NCBI GenBank assembly: GCA_046538755.1
Contig: JBKHIH010000018.1
Coordinates: forward strand, 1 to 48,405
Reading direction: 5' to 3'
Source of the DNA: Thiohalospira sp.
GTDB taxonomy: Bacteria > Bacteroidota > Bacteroidia > Bacteroidales > UBA12077
Length of the DNA: 48,405 bases
The position numbers and the translations under genes are program-made. The notes under the pieces are model-generated. The model worked only from the letters and a program-made list of their open reading frames with translations, did no database searches and was not told the origin of the DNA. Shown here piece after piece: positions 4,419 through 48,009 of this stretch. Each line of letters opens with the position of its first letter. Position 1 is the first letter of the stretch.

Positions 4419-5006
4419 ATGATTAGCTTTACCAATTTATTAATTATTTTTATTTCAATAACCTTTGGGTTTTTGCTGGCTTCCTGGCGGTTAAATAAAA
4501 AACTAGCTAAATATAAAACTTTATCTATCTCCGATGATCTGGGCGTTTTTAATCATCGTGAGTTGAATTCAAAAATTAAATTTTTATTACAAAAACCTGA
4601 TGTTGAGCATTTTGTTTTAATGCTGTTGGATATCGATTTTTTTAAAAATTATAACAACCAGTATGGTTATTCAAAAGCAGATCATATATTGCAAGACTTT
4701 GTAAATCTTACCAAAGGGTACATCCGTAAAACCGATTTTTTTTTCAGGTATAAAAATGGCGATGAGTTTGCATTAATTTTTAATAATATTGGTGTTGAAC
4801 AGGCCCAGGAAATTGGTAACCGGCTACGAAGGGTAATTGCTTACCATCCTTTTCAAATTGATGATAAGCTTGTAAACCTTACCATTAGCATGGGAATTAC
4901 CACTTCGTTTAAAGGTGATACACCCGAACAAATTAAGCAAAGGGCAGAGGAAGCTCTATTAGAAGCAAAACATTCGAAAAATACAGTAGTTTTAATTGAA
5001 GAATAG
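4419..5006 (+). CDS. Membrane-anchored GGDEF-domain protein with a degenerate NGDEF signature
   Basis: One N-terminal TM helix. GGDEF-domain landmarks (DLGVFNHREL, LLDIDFFKNYNNQYGY, RYKNGDEFALIF, ISMGITT). The first Gly of GGDEF is replaced by Asn. Confidence 0.7.
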   Translation: MISFTNLLIIFISITFGFLLASWRLNKKLAKYKTLSISDDLGVFNHRELNSKIKFLLQKPDVEHFVLMLLDIDFFKNYNNQYGYSKADHILQDFVNLTKGYIRKTDFFFRYKNGDEFALIFNNIGVEQAQEIGNRLRRVIAYHPFQIDDKLVNLTISMGITTSFKGDTPEQIKQRAEEALLEAKHSKNTVVLIEE

Positions 5007-5022
5007 TATTCCTTTTTTATAA

Positions 5023-5209
5023 AAAACGAGGCTGTCCAAAAAGTAGTCATTCCGAATGCTGACAGTTATCGTCAGCATGAAGGAATCTTTAAATTTCAAT
5101 GGTCTGATAATAAAAAGATTACCTGCCTGCTGCAGGCAGGCTTCTTCTCCCGATAGCCATCGGGGTCATCGTAATGACGTTGCTTTTTTCTTTTTGGACA
5201 GCCTCGTTT
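5023..5209. repeat. Complex palindromic intergenic repeat element, probable bidirectional terminator, between convergent genes
   Basis: Perfect 20-bp terminal inverted repeat (AAAACGAGGCTGTCCAAAAAG / CTTTTTGGACAGCCTCGTTT) flanked by an A-run and a T-run. Internal hairpins: GCTGACAGTTATCGTCAGC, CCTGCCTGCTGCAGGCAGG and TCCCGATAGCCATCGGGG. The core is shared with the element at 7931-8096. Confidence 0.75.
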
Positions 5210-5228
5210 CTGTTTTAAAGAATAGCTC

Positions 5229-6611
5229 TTATTTATTCCTGTAAACTCTATAATCCCAGGGGGCCATTGTATATTTTGTTGTGATTTGTTCCTCTGAAAA
5301 TAGTTCAAACAACTGATTGCTGTTCAGTTTATTTACAAACTCAAATTCAACTTCATCATCCGATAAATTCAGAATTGTAATAACCTGATGTTCATCTTTT
5401 TCTCTCGAAAAAGCAAAAATATGTTCCTCTGCAGAAGTTTCTATTCTTTCCATTGTACCTCCAAACTCGCCATTCCATAAAGCTTTATTATTTTTCTTAA
5501 GCGTAAGTAAAGCCTTGTAAAATTCAAACATCGAGCAGTCTTTTTCCCAGTTGATGGTATCCTTTTCAAAAAAACTTAGTTGTTTATCCAAACAAGCTTC
5601 CTGCCCGCTGTAAATTAGGGGCATTCCCGGTAGAGTAGTTGAAAGTACTGCAAACGCTTCGGTTGCTTCGCCCAATCTTTCATTTACTGTACCTTTCCAT
5701 GTATTTTCGTCATGGTTGCTTGTAAACATCATACGATAATCAGAGGTGTTGTATTTTGTTTTTTCTTTTTCTAATTGATTAACCAGATCTTCCATATCTT
5801 TTTTACCCTGAGCCATCTCGTTCCATAAAAAGTGTAAATCCCAGGCATAGGTCATGTCAAAGGCAAATTCGTGCAGCTCGGGTTCATTGGCTTCGGCAAG
5901 CATAAATACCGGTTTAATTTTATCAAGTTCGTATCGGGCATTATTCCAAAAATCGGTAGGTACCATTCCTGCAACATCGCATCTGTATCCATCAATATTA
6001 AAATCTTTTACCCAATAAATCAGGGCATCTGTCATATACTTGCGAACTTCAGGTACATCGTAGTTTAAATCAGCCACATCTGACCAATCTTCAACAGGGG
6101 CAATTATCTCTCCCTCTTCATTTTTAGAATACCATTCGGGATGATCATAAATAAGTTGATTATCCCAGGCAGTATGGTTTGCTACCCAGTCGATAATAAC
6201 ATACATTCCCAATTCATGAATCTGGTTTACTAAATTCTTAAAATCCTCTTCGGTACCGAATTCTGGATTTATGCCAAAATAATCTTTTACAGAATAATAG
6301 CTACCCATCGAACCTTTTCGGTTTTTTTCTCCAATAGGATGAATAGGCATGAGCCATAAAATATCTACACCTAACTCTTTTAATCTGGGCAAATGTTCGG
6401 CAAAAGCATTAAAAGTTCCTTCAGGTGTATATTGCCGTATATTTACTTCGTAGATATTTGCATTTTTACTCCATTCTGGATGCTTAACTTCTTGATAATT
6501 AATGATTTTTTGTTCGTTATTTGCCTCGTTTTTACATCCGATAAAAGCTATAAGTGCTAAGAGTATTAAAATCAATGATTTACGCATTAAGTGGGCTGGT
6601 TTTGTTTTCAT
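5229..6611 (-). CDS. GH13 alpha-amylase, predicted lipoprotein
   Basis: Lipobox (LIAFIGC). GH13 motifs (GVDILWLMPIHP, VIIDWVANHTAWD, GYRCDVAGMVP, LAEANE, FTSNHDE). Confidence 0.85.
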   Translation of the reverse strand: MKTKPAHLMRKSLILILLALIAFIGCKNEANNEQKIINYQEVKHPEWSKNANIYEVNIRQYTPEGTFNAFAEHLPRLKELGVDILWLMPIHPIGEKNRKGSMGSYYSVKDYFGINPEFGTEEDFKNLVNQIHELGMYVIIDWVANHTAWDNQLIYDHPEWYSKNEEGEIIAPVEDWSDVADLNYDVPEVRKYMTDALIYWVKDFNIDGYRCDVAGMVPTDFWNNARYELDKIKPVFMLAEANEPELHEFAFDMTYAWDLHFLWNEMAQGKKDMEDLVNQLEKEKTKYNTSDYRMMFTSNHDENTWKGTVNERLGEATEAFAVLSTTLPGMPLIYSGQEACLDKQLSFFEKDTINWEKDCSMFEFYKALLTLKKNNKALWNGEFGGTMERIETSAEEHIFAFSREKDEHQVITILNLSDDEVEFEFVNKLNSNQLFELFSEEQITTKYTMAPWDYRVYRNK

Positions 6612-6814
6612 GTTAAATTAATTTGAATTTTTACAATATATAGTTTATTAAATTGTGATATATCAAGGGTTTTTGTTACATTTACAGGTTAATGTTTTTA
6701 GATTTTAAAGATACGAAAATTTAAAAACAAATATGTATGAAAAGTAGACTAATTAAGGAAAGTAAAAACATTTTTCTTTTCAATTCATAAAAATATTAAT
6801 CTATAAAAAATATA

Positions 6815-7915
6815 ATGCTAATGAAAAGAGTTTTAGTTGCAACAGCAGGTGGAGATTGTCCGGGTTTAAATGCCGTAATAAGGGCAATTGTCAAACGGGC
6901 ATCACAAGAACATGATTGGGAAGTTTTAGGTAGTATACAAGCTTTTAATGGTGTACTTTGGGAACCGTCCGAAATAAGAATCCTTGATGAAAAAGCTGTT
7001 GCGGGAATTCATTTCCAGGGAGGAACAATAATTGAAACCACAAATAAAGGAGGCCCTTTTGCCTGGCCTATAAAAGATAAAGACGGAAAATGGACTACTG
7101 CTGATCGTTCCGAGGAGATGATAAGAAAGTTGATGTATATGGGTGTTGATGCAGTAATTAACATAGGAGGAGATGGTTCTCAACAAATTTCACAGGCATT
7201 GTACGAAAAAGGGTTAAATATTATTGGAGTACCCAAAACGATTGATAATGATTTATCAGCGACAGATTCAACTTTTGGTTTTCAAACTGCCGTTCAGATC
7301 GCTACCGAAGCTGTTGATAAATTAGTAACTACCGCTGCAAGTCATAACAGGGTAATGATTCTTGAAGTAATGGGAAGAAATGCGGGGTGGATCGCTATGA
7401 ATGCAGCAGTGGCTGGTGGTGCAGAGATTTGTTTGATTCCCGAAATTCCGTATGACATTAATAAAGTTTTAGATAAAATTAATAAACGATTTATTCGCGA
7501 CCGTGGCTTTACAATTATTGTTATTGCCGAGGGTGCACGAGCCATAGGAAAAGATATTTCAAAAGTTGAGACCAATGAAGTAGGCTATAAGAATGTAAAA
7601 CTTGCCGGAGCCGCTTCACGGCTCGAACAGGAATTAAAAGAAGCCGGATTAAAGCACGATGTAAGAAAAGCGGTACTTGGGCACATTCAGCGTGGTGGTG
7701 TACCTATCGCTTACGACAGAGTGCTGGCTACGCAATTTGGTGTACATGCATTTCAAATGGTTTTAGAAGCTAAGTTCGGAGAAATGGTTTCTTACCAGCA
7801 TCCGCATATTACTTCGGTACCTTTTAAAGATGCCATTAAAAAACCAAATTTTGTTACGCTTGACACTGCTTTGATGCGAAATGCAAGGGGTGTAGGAATC
7901 AGTTTTGGCGATTAG
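6815..7915 (+). CDS. pfkA: ATP-dependent 6-phosphofructokinase
   Basis: PfkA family motifs (GGDCPGLNAVIRA, IGGDGSQ, PKTIDNDL, MGRNAG). The GGDGS signature favours ATP over PPi dependence. Confidence 0.85.
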   Translation: MLMKRVLVATAGGDCPGLNAVIRAIVKRASQEHDWEVLGSIQAFNGVLWEPSEIRILDEKAVAGIHFQGGTIIETTNKGGPFAWPIKDKDGKWTTADRSEEMIRKLMYMGVDAVINIGGDGSQQISQALYEKGLNIIGVPKTIDNDLSATDSTFGFQTAVQIATEAVDKLVTTAASHNRVMILEVMGRNAGWIAMNAAVAGGAEICLIPEIPYDINKVLDKINKRFIRDRGFTIIVIAEGARAIGKDISKVETNEVGYKNVKLAGAASRLEQELKEAGLKHDVRKAVLGHIQRGGVPIAYDRVLATQFGVHAFQMVLEAKFGEMVSYQHPHITSVPFKDAIKKPNFVTLDTALMRNARGVGISFGD

Positions 7916-7930
7916 TTGGCAAAAAGATAA

Positions 7931-8096
7931 AAAAAAGATGGTGTCTAAAAAGGATTACAAGTGTCATTGCGATCCCGATAACTATCGGGAGAAGCAATCT
8001 ATATTTATTGATTATCAGCAGATTGCTTCACTCTCCCGATATCAATCGGGATCGTTCGCAATGACTTTTTCCTGGCTTTTTAGACACCATCTTTTT
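7931..8096. repeat. Long near-perfect palindromic repeat, probable bidirectional terminator, between convergent pfkA and a GH13 gene
   Basis: Terminal inverted repeat (AAAAAAGATGGTGTCTAAAAAG / CTTTTTAGACACCATCTTTTTT). Its ~35-bp arms (GTCATTGCGATCCCGATAACTATCGGGAGAAG and its near-perfect reverse complement) share the core with the element at 5023-5209. Confidence 0.75.
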
Positions 8097-8108
8097 TGTT
8101 GTATTTCG

Positions 8109-10451
8109 TTAATTGTTTATAATTTCAAAAGCATAAGGTTTTAAAATGAGTGAAATTTCTTTTTCACTCATTTGTTTTATGGTATTTCCAAAATTTGTAC
8201 TCCATTTTTCTGCTACTAAATTTTCAGGCAATTCGATGTTGATTTTTGATTCTTTATTTGATTTATTGATGGCAATCAACATAATCTCATCGAAATATTT
8301 TCTGCCATATACCATTGTTTCATCATCAGCATGGATTAAAATAATATCTCCGTAAATCAGTGAAAGGTTATTTCGCCTTAGATGGATGATTTTTTTAGTA
8401 TTTTCCAAAACAAAATTTTCAAAACGGTTTAAGTTTTCAAATTTCATCGGGCGACGGTTGTCCGGATCTCCTGCGCCGGGCATTCCAATTTCATCACCAT
8501 AATAAATTACCGGTATTCCTGGAATTGTGTTGATAAAACTGGTAACCTGTAATAATCTATAATATCCAACCGTATCTTCAATCTGGATATTACGATTCCA
8601 TCCCGCTTCCTTTTCATCTTCGTCGAATTTTAATGCTCCGCTGGCAAGTGTGATGAACCTTGGCAGGTCGTGATTGCCGGTAATATTTCCCATGAGCGAA
8701 TGATGGCCGTAGTATTTAAGACTTTCTTTTAACGATTGGTTAAGTTTTGTTAAGGGCTCATTTTCCTGTGCCAGATTATTCCGCATATCAAAATAGAGGT
8801 TAAAATCAAATTGCCCGTCGAGCATATCAGGCCCTACATAACTTCTTATTAAATCACGGCTACCAAAGGTTTCTCCAATCTGGAAAATAAAATCTTTCTC
8901 TGTTTTTTTTCTTAATTTTTTTGTTAAAGTTTTCCAATAATCGAGCGGAATATGTTTGGTAGCATCATGCCTGAAACCATCTATATTGTATTCTTGAATC
9001 CAGAACATTGCAGAATCAGACATTATTGTGGTAACTTCAGGTATGGTAAAATCTAACGATGGGATAAAAGTATCGAACCATGTAGTTAAACGGTGCTCAT
9101 TCCATAAACGAATATTTTTACGGCCATCAGGTAAATCTAAAATCGTAACCCATTCAGGATGATCCTGGTAGATTTTGTTTTTGATATGTACATGATTTGA
9201 AACATAGTCGAGGATAATATTCATTTCTTTCTGGTGCGTATTGTTTACAAGCTGCTGCAAATCTTCGGCTGTACCAAAACGATGATCCACAGTGCTTAAT
9301 GTTACCGGCCAGTAGCCATGGTATCCCGAGTATTTTCTATGAGGAGCAGGAAATTCAATATATCCTTCCAGCGGATTTTGTGTAATCGGGGAGAGCCAAA
9401 TCATGCTAACGCCTAAATCGGAAAAATATCCGTCGTTAACTTTTTGTGTAATCCCATCGATATCTCCACCATAATAATTTGCTTTGTCAAAAATATCTGG
9501 ATCATCCACCGGATCGTCATTTGCAGGGTTTCCATTGTTAAAGCGGTCAACCAGCATAAAATACAATACCTGTGCATGCTTATCTTTACGGGTAATTTGA
9601 GCAATGTCGTTCAAAATTTTGCCATGATCCAATGGTATCAAAATATCATTTGAAACCCCATTCTCGTTATACGCCCAAACTCTTATAAACGATCGTTTTT
9701 TGTTTTTAGCAATATCAGGAATTTGAATCGTAATTTTTTCTTTATCTATTTTGGCAGGAATCGTAAAGTTATCCCATAAAGCAATAACCGATTCGATTTC
9801 TCCGGAAAAAGCTATGTTTACTTCTTTATTACTAAAAGAATCTGTTGAAAGTTTTGGTGCATTTTCTGCCGGATCATTAACAGCGAATACCGAATTATAA
9901 CCTCCAATATTATTGCTTTCTTTTTCAGGATTTTGTGGGTCGAGCATCCACTCATCGTTAATTACAAGCTGATACTGATATTTCCCGGGTGACAATTTTA
10001 CAGAATATCTCCATTCATTGTCTTCTATCTTAAAACTTTCTGATGGTGTCCAGTCATTAAAACTTCCTGCTACCTGAACAGAATGATACTGCTTTTTATC
10101 ATCTTTTAGTTGAAATGTATATTCCACTTTTTGATCAAGCAACAAAATGATTGAATATGAATACCCATCGATCCATACTTTTAACTCCTCAGCAGGTTTT
10201 GTCTCTTTTGCAGGAGTAATCTCAATAAATTCATTTTTATCTGAGAGAGTGTATTTGTAACCAGTAATTGTTACAGAATCTATATCTTCAGTATTTTTAA
10301 AAATACCATTTAGAGCTATTTCCTGTCCATTTTCATTAACATAAACGGGTAATGCAAGTTCAAACATCTCTGATTTTTCAGGAATATTAAGCTTTTGTTT
10401 GGTACATCCTAAATTGAATAAAATCAATAAAACAATTAGTAATTTTTTCAT
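8109..10451 (-). CDS. GH13 alpha-glucan hydrolase with an N-terminal CBM48-like domain, predicted lipoprotein
   Basis: Lipobox (LILFNLGC). CBM48/AMPK-beta-like segment (VQVAGSFNDWTP...YQYQLVINDEWMLDPQNP). GH13 motifs (DGFRHDATKHIP, GETFG, TGNHDLPR). Confidence 0.8.
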   Translation of the reverse strand: MKKLLIVLLILFNLGCTKQKLNIPEKSEMFELALPVYVNENGQEIALNGIFKNTEDIDSVTITGYKYTLSDKNEFIEITPAKETKPAEELKVWIDGYSYSIILLLDQKVEYTFQLKDDKKQYHSVQVAGSFNDWTPSESFKIEDNEWRYSVKLSPGKYQYQLVINDEWMLDPQNPEKESNNIGGYNSVFAVNDPAENAPKLSTDSFSNKEVNIAFSGEIESVIALWDNFTIPAKIDKEKITIQIPDIAKNKKRSFIRVWAYNENGVSNDILIPLDHGKILNDIAQITRKDKHAQVLYFMLVDRFNNGNPANDDPVDDPDIFDKANYYGGDIDGITQKVNDGYFSDLGVSMIWLSPITQNPLEGYIEFPAPHRKYSGYHGYWPVTLSTVDHRFGTAEDLQQLVNNTHQKEMNIILDYVSNHVHIKNKIYQDHPEWVTILDLPDGRKNIRLWNEHRLTTWFDTFIPSLDFTIPEVTTIMSDSAMFWIQEYNIDGFRHDATKHIPLDYWKTLTKKLRKKTEKDFIFQIGETFGSRDLIRSYVGPDMLDGQFDFNLYFDMRNNLAQENEPLTKLNQSLKESLKYYGHHSLMGNITGNHDLPRFITLASGALKFDEDEKEAGWNRNIQIEDTVGYYRLLQVTSFINTIPGIPVIYYGDEIGMPGAGDPDNRRPMKFENLNRFENFVLENTKKIIHLRRNNLSLIYGDIILIHADDETMVYGRKYFDEIMLIAINKSNKESKINIELPENLVAEKWSTNFGNTIKQMSEKEISLILKPYAFEIINN

Positions 10452-27104: not shown

Positions 27105-27908
27105 ATGAATATACTCAAAAAACAAATAGCGCCTTTATCAGATAAGGCATGGAAAGAGATTACTGATCAGTCATCAGAAATATTTAGTATTTACCTGACA
27201 GCCAGAAGTTTTGTTGATTTAAATGGGCCAAATGGATTGGAATATGGAGGAGTTTCTACAGGTAGATTAGTACAAACAAACAAGGAAAACAAAGAGAATG
27301 TAAATTATGGTTTAAGGGAAATAGTTCCGCTTGTAGAAATTCGTAAACCTTTCGAATTAAATATTTGGGAAATGGATAATGTTGACAGAGGTGCATTGGA
27401 TGTAGATTTGGAACCTGTTGTTAAAGCTGCTAAACAGGTAGCTCTTTTTGAAGAAGATTTAATTTATAAAGGATTTAAAGACGGACAGGTTCAGGGCCTT
27501 GAAAAAAGCTCTATACACCCAAAAGTTACTTTGCCAAACGATCCTACGAAGTTGTTGAAAGTTATTGGTGAACAAGTTACTGTTTTTGAGAAACATGGTG
27601 TTAAAGGCCCATTTACCTTAGTTGTTAATGATAAAAAATGGCAGGATTTAGCCAGTCTGGAAAAGGGTTACCCGATTGTTAAACAATTAGAAGAGGTAAT
27701 GAATATTAAAGTAGTAATTAATTATGGAAATTATAACTCATTTTTTGTTTCAGAACGAGGCGGTGATTTTGAACTGTCCATTGGACAGGACATTTCTATA
27801 GGTTATGATAGCCATGATACAGAAAAAGTAAAGCTTTACTTTACCGAATCTTTTACCTTTAGAGTACTCGGGCCCGAAGCAGTAATCGTACTGGAAAGCC
27901 CAAAATAA
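27105..27908 (+). CDS. Family-1 encapsulin nanocompartment shell protein (linocin M18-like, HK97 fold)
   Basis: Strong end-to-end resemblance to Thermotoga-type encapsulin: LKKQIAPLSDKAWKEITDQSSEIF ... SERGGDFELSIGQDISIGYDSHD ... LYFTESFTFRVLGPEA. Length 267 aa. Confidence 0.85.
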   Translation: MNILKKQIAPLSDKAWKEITDQSSEIFSIYLTARSFVDLNGPNGLEYGGVSTGRLVQTNKENKENVNYGLREIVPLVEIRKPFELNIWEMDNVDRGALDVDLEPVVKAAKQVALFEEDLIYKGFKDGQVQGLEKSSIHPKVTLPNDPTKLLKVIGEQVTVFEKHGVKGPFTLVVNDKKWQDLASLEKGYPIVKQLEEVMNIKVVINYGNYNSFFVSERGGDFELSIGQDISIGYDSHDTEKVKLYFTESFTFRVLGPEAVIVLESPK

Positions 27909-28077
27909 AAAATAACTTGTTAGAAGGATATTGCATGAAGGTTCGACGGAAAGATTTGTGTGAGGCTTAAGCGGGAGACACCGGCAACAAAAAAGATTAT
28001 TAAAATTTGAATTTGTAAATCGCAGAACTAAGCGCTAGCGTTCTCATGACAGAAGGAAATAAAAACAATTGTTTAAC
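27904..28077 (+). repeat. Copy A of a ~140-170-bp conserved intergenic element. It begins at the encapsulin stop codon and carries a 34-bp insertion relative to copy B.
   Basis: About 92% identical to the reverse complement of 41153-41291. The shared core includes GCTTAAGCGGGAGACACCGGCAACAAAAAAGATTATT. Confidence 0.8.
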
Positions 28078-28112
28078 TAAAATATATTCTCGTGAAGATT
28101 CTTACAATAACT

Positions 28113-28597: not shown

Positions 28598-28699
28598 GTA
28601 AAAACTTATAAGGATAAGGAATCGAATTGCTATTGAAATCCTTTATATTAAGTTTATTGGTTACTTTTTTATGGTTTGTTTATTAAAAGATTTTATTTA

Positions 28700-29629
28700 A
28701 TGAAAGTTTTAACATTAACAATGAATCCGGTTTTAGACAGAAATACAAGTACAAAAATGGTTATGCCGGATAAAAAAGTACGATGCACCAGGCCAGAATT
28801 GAAACCCGGAGGTGGGGGAATTAATGTTTCCAGAGCTATTCAAAAATTAGGATACGAGTCTTCAGCATGTGCTTTGGCGGGTGGAACAAACCGTGGAAAA
28901 ATAGAAGATTTACTTGCAAAACATAATATTAAAACACACATAATAGATTCAGGAACCGATTGCAGGGAAAATTTATTTGTTTTTGATGAAACTACAGGCC
29001 AGATGTACAGGTTTATAATGCCCGGAGATCATGTAATTGCCGACGAAGAAAAAATATTACAACAAATTAAGGATATTGCAATAAATTACAATTATGTAGT
29101 TGCCAGTGGTAGTCTGCTTCCGGGAATATCGACTGAATTTTATGCAAAGTTGGCTAAATTTTTTAAAGAAAATGATATTAAATTCATTTTGGATACATCA
29201 GGCCCGGCGCTTAAAAATGCTATTCAAGAGGGTGTATACCTGATTAAGCCCAATTTAAGAGAACTTGCCAGTTTGGTAGGAAAGGATAAGTTAACAGGAA
29301 TAGACCAGGAAAAAGCTGCAAATGAAATTTTAGAAAAGGGGCAGGCTAATGTTATTGTATTATCGCTTGGAGCCAAAGGTGCAATGTTGGCCCAAATTGG
29401 ACATATAATTGAATACATTACTCCTCCCACAATGCCAATAGTTAGTCCTGTGGGAGCCGGCGACTCAATGGTAGCCGGAATTATTACCGGGTTTATTAAA
29501 GGTTTTTGGCCAACAGAAGCAATTCGATATGGAGTAGCAGCAGGTACAGCCGCGGCCATGCAACCTGGTTCGGAACTTTGTACTAAAGAAGATACCGACA
29601 GGATATGGAAATGGCTAAAGCCTGATTAA
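28700..29629 (+). CDS. PfkB-family sugar-phosphate kinase (Pfk-2 / 1-phosphofructokinase / tagatose-6-P kinase subfamily)
   Basis: Motifs GGGGINVSRA and VGAGDSMVAGI, the FruK/LacC/Pfk-2-type anion hole. The start was chosen at the internal Met (MKVLTLTMNPV); the longest ORF begins at 28676. Confidence 0.75.
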   Translation: MKVLTLTMNPVLDRNTSTKMVMPDKKVRCTRPELKPGGGGINVSRAIQKLGYESSACALAGGTNRGKIEDLLAKHNIKTHIIDSGTDCRENLFVFDETTGQMYRFIMPGDHVIADEEKILQQIKDIAINYNYVVASGSLLPGISTEFYAKLAKFFKENDIKFILDTSGPALKNAIQEGVYLIKPNLRELASLVGKDKLTGIDQEKAANEILEKGQANVIVLSLGAKGAMLAQIGHIIEYITPPTMPIVSPVGAGDSMVAGIITGFIKGFWPTEAIRYGVAAGTAAAMQPGSELCTKEDTDRIWKWLKPD

Positions 29630-40975: not shown

Positions 40976-41152
40976 AATAATTTTATTTTTAAAGTGATTG
41001 TTTCCAATATTTTATAAACGATTGTAAAAAAATCATTCCAAATTAAAATAAAAACAAAATGAGTGTGATAATCAGATATGTATATTTTGATAAGAATTGA
41101 ATTGTGGAATTATTACCCGGTTTTGCAATTATATTTCATTGGAATATATTTT

Positions 41153-41291
41153 TGTTAAACATATGTTTTCTGCGATTTACTAATTCAAATTACAATAATC
41201 TTTTTTGTTGCCGGTGTCTCCCGCTTAAGCTTTCCACAAATCCCTCCGGCGAACCTTCATGCAATAACCTTCTAACAAGTTATTTTTTATT
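41153..41291 (-). repeat. Copy B of the conserved intergenic element, in inverted orientation relative to copy A
   Basis: Its reverse complement aligns to 27904-28077 at ~92% identity with one 34-bp indel. It has the same polarity relative to the downstream minus-strand gene (40975..40568) that copy A has to the downstream pfkB genes. Confidence 0.8.
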
Positions 41292-41497
41292 GCCTTCGGC
41301 GAGCTCGTAAACTCGGTTCATGTCCTTTTGAGTTTGTGCCGGTTTAATTTTTTATCCTTAAGCATGAAGGTTTCATAAGAATTTGATAATGCAGTTAGCA
41401 ATTTGTCTGAACAAAATATAAAAGATGGTGTCTGTAATAATGTAAACCTTTCAATAAACCAATCAAATAATTTCAGTATCATTTAAAAAATAATAAG

Positions 41498-47917: not shown

Positions 47918-48009
47918 TTAAAGCATGGTTTAAATAAAAAATAGTTATACGATTCCCTGTCTGCTGAAAGGCAGGCAAATGACTTTAAAAACAATTAAAA
48001 AATAGATAC

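Follow-up and report, generated by a model that had tools for sequence, protein, structure and literature searches.

This report concerns two long, near-perfect palindromes, E1 and E2, in a contig of 48,405 nucleotides assigned to Thiohalospira sp. (GTDB lineage Bacteroidales, UBA12077; GenBank assembly GCA_046538755.1, contig JBKHIH010000018.1, positions 1 to 48,405 of the forward strand). This whole stretch, referred to below as the window, has about 34% G+C, encodes a Por_Secre_tail protein, and carries a phosphofructokinase (PFK) whose closest proteins come from metagenome-assembled genomes (MAGs) of Bacteroidales/Bacteroidota. E1 (5024-5209) lies between the convergent genes for a GGDEF protein (4419-5006, + strand) and a GH13 protein (5229-6611, - strand), and E2 (7931-8097) lies between the convergent genes for PFK (6815-7915, + strand) and another GH13 protein (8109-10451, - strand). 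Each is bounded by perfect terminal inverted repeats (TIRs), of 20 bp in E1 (AAACGAGGCTGTCCAAAAAG and CTTTTTGGACAGCCTCGTTT) and of 22 bp in E2 (AAAAAAGATGGTGTCTAAAAAG and CTTTTTAGACACCATCTTTTTT), and is flanked by an A-run on its left and by a T-run on its right. A first-pass annotation, made from the letters alone, had reported two elements with perfect TIRs of about 20 bp between an A-run and a T-run, placed at two convergent-gene junctions, sharing an internal core, with an extra hairpin in E1; all of these observations hold. The core, GTCATTNCGA..CCCGATnnnnATCGGG, occurs three times in the window (0.00 expected), the TIR core occurs four times (0.39 expected), and the extra hairpin is CCTGCCTGC..GCAGGCAGG.

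Both elements fold far more stably than shuffled sequences (z = -9.9 for E1 and -11.9 for E2; 0 of 200 shuffles equally good). A covariance model of the hairpin unit described below finds exactly four units in the 48-kb window, with E values from 5e-6 to 0.017, and these coincide with the arms of E1 and E2; its best match elsewhere in the window has E >= 2. Neither element is a copy of the other; they belong to two different subfamilies, and their nearest relatives are found in other Bacteroidales MAGs. The nearest relative of E1 (an element in L006) has the same three modules, and that of E2 (an element in L013, another MAG) matches E2 almost completely in backbone and central spacer but differs in its apical modules. 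The sequences flanking E1 and E2 are unrelated to each other, so that a local segmental duplication, one of the two conditions under which the first-pass annotation would have withdrawn its proposal of a repeat family, does not apply.

Alignment of both strands of E1 and E2, and then of many relatives, distinguishes three nested layers in these elements (Table 1). The first is the outer TIR, G(A/G)GGCTGTCYAAAAAG. The second consists of two inward-facing hairpin units in head-to-head arrangement, i.e., with their tags outside, each of the form GTC-ATTNC-GA-[apical hairpin]-GAA-GN'AAT-C; the spacer from TIR to unit is 2 or about 10-12 nt, and the central spacer between the units is 20-40 nt. The third layer, which is optional, consists of small G+C-rich hairpin modules at the apex of a unit or just before N'AAT, for example CCCGAT-n4-ATCGGG, the CCTGCCTGC..GCAGGCAGG module, and TGCTGAC..GTCAGCA. 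The bases before GTC in the four window units give AGTC, CGTC, TGTC and AGTC, and three of the four arms fold as single-stranded DNA (ssDNA) in the way the model predicts.

Table 1. Features of the composite palindromes E1 and E2 (positions in the window)
Feature	Position	Strand	Remarks
E1 composite palindrome, 186 bp	5024..5209		between stop codons of GGDEF gene (+) and GH13 gene (-)
E1 left outer TIR, AAACGAGGCTGTCCAAAAAG	5024..5043	+	A-run precedes; TIR arms covary across family
E1 left hairpin unit, GTC-ATTCC-GA-[hairpin]-GAA-GGAAT-C, C/G type	5046..5087	+	covariance-model E=3.6e-5; ssDNA fold
E1 left-unit apical module, ATGCTGAC-AGTTATC-GTCAGCAT	5056..5078	+	replaces usual GNA triloop
E1 central spacer	5088..5116		between the two units
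E1 right hairpin unit, A/T type, GTCATTACGA..GTAATC on - strand, two modules	5117..5178	-	covariance-model E=0.017
E1 module, CCTGCCTGC-tg-CAGGCAGG	5122..5140		inserted between GAAG and N'AAT; same module in same position in L064 and L006
E1 right-unit apex module, CCCGAT-AGCC-ATCGGG	5149..5164		hairpin
E1 right outer TIR	5190..5209	-	T-run follows
E2 composite palindrome, 167 bp	7931..8097		between stop codons of PFK gene (+) and GH13 gene (-)
E2 left outer TIR, AAAAAAGATGGTGTCTAAAAAG	7931..7952	+	three differences from E1 TIR, each compensated in right arm
E2 left hairpin unit, GTC-ATTGC-GA-[TCCCGATAACTATCGGGA]-GAA-GCAAT-C	7963..7999	+	covariance-model E=1.5e-5; ssDNA fold
E2 central spacer	8000..8020		nearly identical in L013
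E2 right hairpin unit, GTCATTGCGA..GAAGCAATC on - strand, apex CCCGAT-TGAT-ATCGGG	8021..8065	-	covariance-model E=4.8e-6; ssDNA fold
E2 right outer TIR	8076..8097	-	T-run follows

The repeated entity is the half-element hairpin, and covariation runs within the arms, which corrects the picture given by the first-pass annotation. Positions N and N' are Watson-Crick partners within the arm in 182 of 218 units, and N pairs with the N' of its own arm, not with that of the opposite arm; in E1 the two arms differ at this pair. The tags lie outside in E1, in E2 and in all 59 complete elements of the family. In an alignment of 72 units, two pairs of the apical stem, which played no part in the selection of these units, are paired in 94% of cells, a value reached by 0 of 500 shuffles, and the pairing collapses when the partner columns are slid. 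The unit has a stem of 5 bp, then a GA/GAA internal loop and an apical stem of 2-8 bp, with loops that are mostly GNA triplets. GTC is invariant in the 72 units, preceded by C (35), T (27), A (9) or G (1); ATT...AAT is likewise invariant (72/72); and the base after the stem is C in 70 of 72 and the next base T in 55 of 72, giving a tail of the form CTn. Among the short units, 27 of 36 have a GNA triloop at the apex, mostly closed by C-G, and an apex of this kind is the GCGNAGC mini-hairpin, which is exceptionally stable in DNA (PMC13037366).

To follow the family further, species-representative genomes were scanned with an exact pattern (outer TIR, spacer and GTCATTNCGA), and the family counts given here refer to the matches listed. 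At least 119 loci match, in Flavobacteriales, Bacteroidales, Sphingobacteriales, Cytophagia, Ignavibacteriota, Chlorobiota, Treponema and a few other phyla, and several MAGs give 4-6 loci each among these matches. Thus, the core is not unique to the two loci in the window. [quoted passage not shown] A partner TIR is present for 101 of 150 ends, the partnerless ends being contig ends or decayed copies, and element length has its mode at 130-131 bp within a range of 67-391 bp. The annotation had also called for a check of orientation at convergent junctions: of 44 classifiable copies, 39 are downstream of at least one gene (19 convergent, 20 tandem, 5 divergent), and the copies usually lie 7-70 nt from a stop codon.

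Two longer candidates for an autonomous element were rejected, L050 (2185 bp) being two distinct elements on either side of a housekeeping gene and L101 (510 bp) a degenerate copy. In an Ignavibacteriales MAG (L063, 3632-4475) at least six copies are arrayed in tandem with a period of 147 bp; each copy comprises the left outer TIR and a complete unit dimer, and the right outer TIR closes the last copy only.

A class of repeats with comparable features has been described. The CGTC-tagged REP superfamily was defined by Di Nocera, De Gregorio and Rocco in 2013 by a (C/T)GTC tag, for which CCTC is a further variant, an A-T stem opening and a short tail (PMC3733652). Its members, which include Neisseria dRS3 and Rickettsia RPE-4/6, mostly form head-to-head dimers (i.e., tags outside) with conserved spacers and without an associated transposase, and they range over Proteobacteria, Bacteroidetes (Gramella forsetii), Chlorobi, Spirochaetes and Thermotogae; REP dimers of Anabaena that are embedded in longer palindromes provide a precedent for an outer repeat (PMC3733652). 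The Neisseria NTS, CGTCATTCCCGCGMAVGCGGGAATCYRG, which contains dRS3, is bound and cut solely as ssDNA by SsnA, a 94-aa single-domain GIY-YIG nuclease that binds ssDNA, not RNA (Chenal et al. 2025, PMC11893778). In the NTS, the three bases 5' of the palindrome determine cleavage and the C right after it determines binding, and ssn genes are typically bracketed by Ssn-related motifs (SRMs), in the order NTS-ssnA-NTS (PMC11893778). From its sequence, the E1/E2 unit is best read as a member of this CGTC-tagged REP/Neisseria NTS class.

The unit subtype of E1 and E2 also brackets genes of the SsnA type. Metagenomes were scanned with a pattern that joins the unit, GTCATTNCGA..AGNAATC, to codons for Y-[IV]-Y-x-x-x-N at a distance of 15-45 nt, and at least 120 contigs were found in which the E1/E2 unit subtype precedes an open reading frame (ORF) of about 95 aa with a confirmed PF01541 (GIY-YIG) domain. 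The spacing of residues Y8/Y19/E66 in these ORFs equals that of Y6/Y17/E64 in the 94-aa SsnA (PMC11893778). Since the upstream unit was required by the pattern, the independent test lies downstream of the gene. There, among the contigs listed, the reverse unit TCGNAATGAC is found within -40..+200 nt of the stop codon in 80 of 95 complete genes, mostly 25-45 nt past it, at a density of 4.15 per kb on one strand, as against 0.24 per kb on both strands together at more than 600 nt away, i.e., about 35-fold more per strand. Loci L127-L133, which belong to database proteins with the sister-unit endings described below, show the order unit, about 10-20 nt, GIY-YIG gene, reverse unit. In a Flavobacteriaceae-like contig (L155) and an isolate of Tamlana sp. 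(L254), the GIY-YIG gene lies inside BIME-like arrays of head-to-head dimers of the E1/E2 subtype. The unit-bracketed ORFs have no NCBIfam hit, and their match in the PDB, UPF0213 BH0048, is weak.

Several observations accompany these cassettes. The arrays at L155 (2330-3200) and L254 (1300-2290) lie on both sides of the GIY-YIG gene, and in Tamlana fragments of the gene are tandemly duplicated together with dimers. One cassette (L132, 2437-2970) separates hsdS from hsdM in a type I restriction-modification operon, and another (L129/L131, 750-2863) is situated directly downstream of genes for a reverse transcriptase (RVT_1) and an N6/N4 methyltransferase. A contig of a Parcubacteria MAG (L029) carries, at about 440-500 and at 5966-6003, a Neisseria-type NTS unit, CGTCATTCCCGCGCAGGCGGGAATCCAG, together with units of the E1/E2 subtype; thus, several unit subtypes can coexist in one genome.

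The repeats have also left a mark in protein databases. A GIY-YIG query returns thousands of small PF01541 proteins, some with source names from Bacteroidota (Prolixibacteraceae, Dysgonamonadaceae, Prevotellaceae, Tamlana), and about half of the 120 proteins listed end in ..IAGQARND.. or ..GDCGSSPQ. These two endings are two reading frames of GATTGCGGGTCAAGCCCGCAATGAC, a reverse-oriented sister unit, and arise by read-through. Many of the proteins P0121-P0240 have either these false C-terminal endings or false N-terminal extensions, CHCGLDPQS and VIAGLTRNP, which are likewise translations of the flanking repeats. Such extensions are annotation artefacts, yet they can be used as a marker of the repeat; peptides of the LLRFARND type are a further extension predicted by translating the unit.

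The positions of E1 and E2 can be compared with the corresponding junctions in relatives, whose loci were found via homologues of the window PFK, since an exact look-up of that protein gave no record. Gene order is conserved in contigs with a PFK 96% (L120) and 88% (L121-L126) identical to that of the window. At both convergent junctions these relatives have short, mutually unrelated hairpins between A- and T-runs, in spacers of 29-141 nt, and the unit covariance model finds no unit in the 117 kb of their syntenic loci. The hairpin of L120 at the first site is called by a terminator scan, and the flanks of this site, with their A-run and T-run, are roughly alignable between L120 and the window, which places E1 at the exact position of the ancestral hairpin. 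The parsimonious reading of these comparisons is that there were two independent gains in the window lineage, by two subfamilies, at terminator positions. Both elements present a G+C-rich stem directly before a U-run on both strands: E1 ends in ..GGACAGCCTCG-TTTCTGTTTT on the + strand and in ..CCTCG-TTTTTTAT on the - strand, and in E2 the runs read T6 (+ strand) and T8 (- strand). Probably, then, E1 and E2 serve as bidirectional terminators or 3' stabilisers, and the co-option as terminators suggested by the first-pass annotation would fit the data for both.

Because the E1/E2 unit subtype brackets GIY-YIG genes elsewhere, E1 and E2 are best read as gene-less derivatives of such cassettes. More precisely, they are likely to be REPIN-like (REPINs being inverted REP doublets that form long hairpins), non-autonomous dimers built from the hairpin found on both sides of Ssn-type GIY-YIG genes and enclosed by an outer inverted repeat specific to the family; the individual functional steps are held with less confidence than this structural reading. 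By analogy, E1 and E2 would play the role of the REPIN, and the GIY-YIG nuclease that of the REP-associated tyrosine transposase (RAYT). An outer inverted repeat of 14-22 bp encloses the head-to-head dimer; at an ssDNA stage, each arm would fold into its own hairpin, and the cognate nuclease would bind this hairpin via the stem and the 3' C and nick a few nucleotides 5' of the GTC tag, as expected by homology with the Neisseria system. In transcripts, the palindrome's G+C-rich base, with a U-run after it on either strand, may terminate or stabilise both converging messages, which would explain the persistence of copies at the 3' ends of genes.

Seven points weigh against this interpretation. 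The stem and loop dimensions of E1/E2-type units differ from those of the four published CGTC families, the continuous-stem geometry being fitted only by Treponema/Flavobacterium variants, ATTCCGAA-CTCGT-TTCGGAAT. The published SRM pattern, HGTCWYN(0-2)YYVSBRHN(0-5)WNVSBRGN(0-2)RNCYNB, matches none of the four window units, nor the canonical unit; it matches the NTS itself and one NTS-like unit in L029. Phmmer and HMM searches find no ssn-like gene in the 48-kb window nor in 0.95 Mb around 150 element ends, and the link to the nuclease thus rests on the identity of the unit, not on co-occurrence in the window genome. The outer TIR is present in 0 of 95 ssn cassettes, and no end with TIR plus unit occurs in 562 kb of cassette contigs; the outer TIR is therefore a separate layer, which the interpretation leaves unexplained. 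Most of the metagenome contigs are without known taxonomy, and their upstream unit was imposed by the pattern. The outer stem encloses about 130 nt (125-145), unlike the loop of 3-8 nt in compact terminators, and a simple terminator scan makes no call. Finally, a head-to-head dimer offers one correctly oriented site per strand, with no evident route for excision or movement of the whole element.

The sole match of the above protein searches in the 0.95 Mb, a distant GIY-YIG gene, was rejected as unrelated to the units. It is an 80-aa gene of another subfamily in a Flavobacteriales MAG (L041, 6500-7000), situated between a truncated and a complete copy of one tRNA gene, which looks like integration into the 3' end of the tRNA gene.

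A bolder proposal, which goes beyond the reading of E1 and E2 as gene-less cassette derivatives and to which only about a quarter of our belief is given, concerns mobility on ssDNA. According to this proposal, the Ssn-type cassettes (unit-gene-unit) would be the true mobile elements, moving on ssDNA; the TIR-bounded, gene-less dimers would be their MITE or REPIN equivalents, spread across the Fibrobacteres-Chlorobi-Bacteroidetes (FCB) group; insertion would target the single-stranded apex of extruded hairpins; and the elements would, as a system, displace intrinsic terminators and assume the function of these. The pattern in its favour is nesting: hairpins sit in the apices of units, dimers sit inside the TIR hairpin, and the element sits in the place of a terminator, as might be expected of a footprint of insertion at hairpin apices.

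The next alternative, a classical MITE, is improbable, at roughly half the weight of the preceding proposal. The outer TIRs of 14-22 bp would then be the ends of a deleted insertion sequence (IS) with a DDE transposase, mobilised in trans, and the inner REP dimer would be cargo. The well conserved TIRs, the narrow length distribution and the lack of an ORF are what would be expected of such an element, and the lack of the TIR in GIY-YIG cassettes makes it a separable feature. However, the check for target-site duplications called for by the first-pass annotation came out negative, with no direct repeats flanking any of the 59 complete copies, nor E1 or E2. No parent IS with the same TIRs, and no longer element enclosing a transposase, was found in the loci examined, at least 119 in number and up to 8 kb long; the sole TIR pair more than 1 kb apart belongs to the two elements that surround a housekeeping gene. 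When the 879 ORFs lying no more than 2 kb from units were clustered all against all, neither a recurrent neighbouring protein family nor a transposase emerged. Furthermore, the arms of the outer TIR covary (one Y-R pair is C-G in 24, T-A in 20, T-G in 6 and other in 6; another pair is A-T in 26 and G-C in 14), which fits a hairpin stem rather than a sequence read by a protein.

That the elements constitute a structured non-coding RNA family, as small RNAs or 3' untranslated regions, is quite unlikely. RNA function would account for the conservation, the very stable folds and the covariation in both unit and TIR helices, and most copies, being at the 3' ends of genes, are probably transcribed. 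Yet Rfam scans at gathering and permissive thresholds gave nothing relevant (nor were tRNA genes found); the two-fold symmetry puts the same motif on both strands; the mismatches at the Y-R pair (T-G 6, C-A 6) show no strand preference; GNA triloops are a signature of DNA, not of RNA; and the family is multi-copy, with presence or absence differing between close relatives. In addition, its units bracket genes of a nuclease family, and the member of that family that has been characterised binds ssDNA, not RNA (PMC11893778).

Marginally less probable still is that E1 and E2 are REPINs or BIMEs proper, mobilised by a RAYT, i.e., an IS200/IS605-like Y1 HUH enzyme. The doublet of hairpins with a conserved 5' tag matches REPINs, and among the Y1 enzymes of Bacteroidota are subclasses with 'atypical secondary structures' (PMC6006769); but the tag is (C/T)GTC and not GTAG or GTGG, no RAYT gene flanked by CGTC repeats was found by Di Nocera et al. 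(PMC3733652), no Y1 transposase was found near any copy, and the gene that is bracketed encodes a GIY-YIG protein. That E1 and E2 are bidirectional terminators of independent origin, or products of a local segmental duplication, without any family, would suit a site between convergent genes with A- and T-runs, but this idea is refuted by a sequence conserved in at least 119 loci of many phyla, two different subfamilies and the unrelated flanks.

Two further fragments of the window had been listed by the first-pass annotation as related to the elements, near 41414 and near 47953. Both are real sequence matches, but neither is a copy of the element or a unit by the covariance model. The first (41420-41433, + strand) is a solitary, exact 14-nt copy, AAAAGATGGTGTCT, of the outer end of the E2 TIR (0.03 expected), with no unit and no partner arm, upstream of a flavodoxin/FAD reductase gene, and it may be a relic of a lost element. 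The second (47956-47975, + strand) is a stand-alone hairpin, CCTGTCTGC-tgaaag-GCAGG, after aceE (pyruvate dehydrogenase E1), which shares with the E1 hairpin at 5122-5140 only the CCTGYCTGC..GCAGG module (0 expected). As this module is also nested in E1 and in elements of L064, L006 and L013, it suggests a second, smaller family of hairpin repeats.

Elsewhere in the window, an inverted repeat of about 190 nt occupies two intergenic sites 13 kb apart (27904-28096 and 41135-41291; 124 nt at 92% identity); it has neither an Rfam match nor any sign of structure (z = +0.99). The genes between its arms, for a pfkB kinase, a trehalose phosphatase, a GH65 protein and a P-type ATPase, belong to sugar metabolism and transport, and the repeat could represent the end-points of an inversion, a repeated regulatory region or another repeat family. 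The non-coding segment 28150-28600, upstream of an intact pfkB-family kinase gene (28676-29629), resembles the fragmentary, decayed remains of a further pfkB copy.

As to novelty, the repeat class and its nuclease partner are already published. A full-text literature search with the core sequence and its peptide translations returned primer noise only, and the bipartite unit, the TIR-bounded composite of about 130 bp with its wide occurrence in the FCB group, the nesting of hairpin modules and the replacement of ordinary terminators were not found in the searchable literature. To our knowledge, the CGTC-tagged REPs have been 'orphans' since 2013, without a known mobilising enzyme. If the interpretation as gene-less Ssn-type dimers is correct, the partnership of Ssn and its repeat would extend to a major phylum whose bacteria live in the gut and in the environment; a tractable pair would be at hand in the form of the Tamlana protein, or a metagenomic GIY-YIG protein, and oligonucleotides of the E1/E2 arms; and there would be a concrete case of how selfish palindromes become functional terminators. 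In practical terms, assemblies break at repeats of the E1/E2 type, and such repeats give rise to spurious ORFs and to false extensions at the C-terminus (IAGQARND, GDCGSSPQ).

The family can be placed among four known systems. With the terminator or RNA-processing MITEs (Neisseria Correia elements, ERIC and RUP; PMC10969869) it shares small size, TIRs, strong hairpins, an intergenic location and, probably, an effect on neighbouring transcripts; those MITEs, however, come with target-site duplications and with parent IS families that can be identified, and neither was found for the E1/E2 family. With the CGTC-tagged REPs it shares the unpaired (C/T)GTC tag 5' of the hairpin, a stem that opens with A-T and T-A, a tail that begins with C (CTn in the E1/E2 family, consensus CCA in the published REPs), head-to-head dimers with conserved spacers, sites downstream of genes, the lack of an adjacent transposase and the occasional embedding in longer palindromes. 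Whereas the published REPs have a continuous stem of 8-9 bp and a loop of 4-5 nt, the E1/E2 family has the 5-bp stem, the GA/GAA internal loop and an apical mini-hairpin or larger nested hairpin, and it adds the conserved outer TIR, giving a MITE-like propagation unit of about 130 bp. With the NTS/Ssn system it shares multi-copy CGTC-ATT..AAT-C hairpins, placed head-to-head around a gene for a single-domain GIY-YIG protein of about 95 aa, with the 5' GTC and the 3' C retained; the differences are that the published SRM pattern fails on E1/E2-type units, that the units flanking cassettes lack the outer TIR, and that the described role in natural transformation concerns the published system. With REPINs and BIMEs and their RAYTs, finally, it shares tagged hairpins in inverted doublets that can fold as one long hairpin, an intergenic location, the lack of target duplication and, probably, derivation from the flanks of a single-copy nuclease or transposase gene; in that system the tag is GTAG and the enzyme HUH-Y1, whereas in the E1/E2 family the tag is (C/T)GTC and the putative enzyme GIY-YIG.

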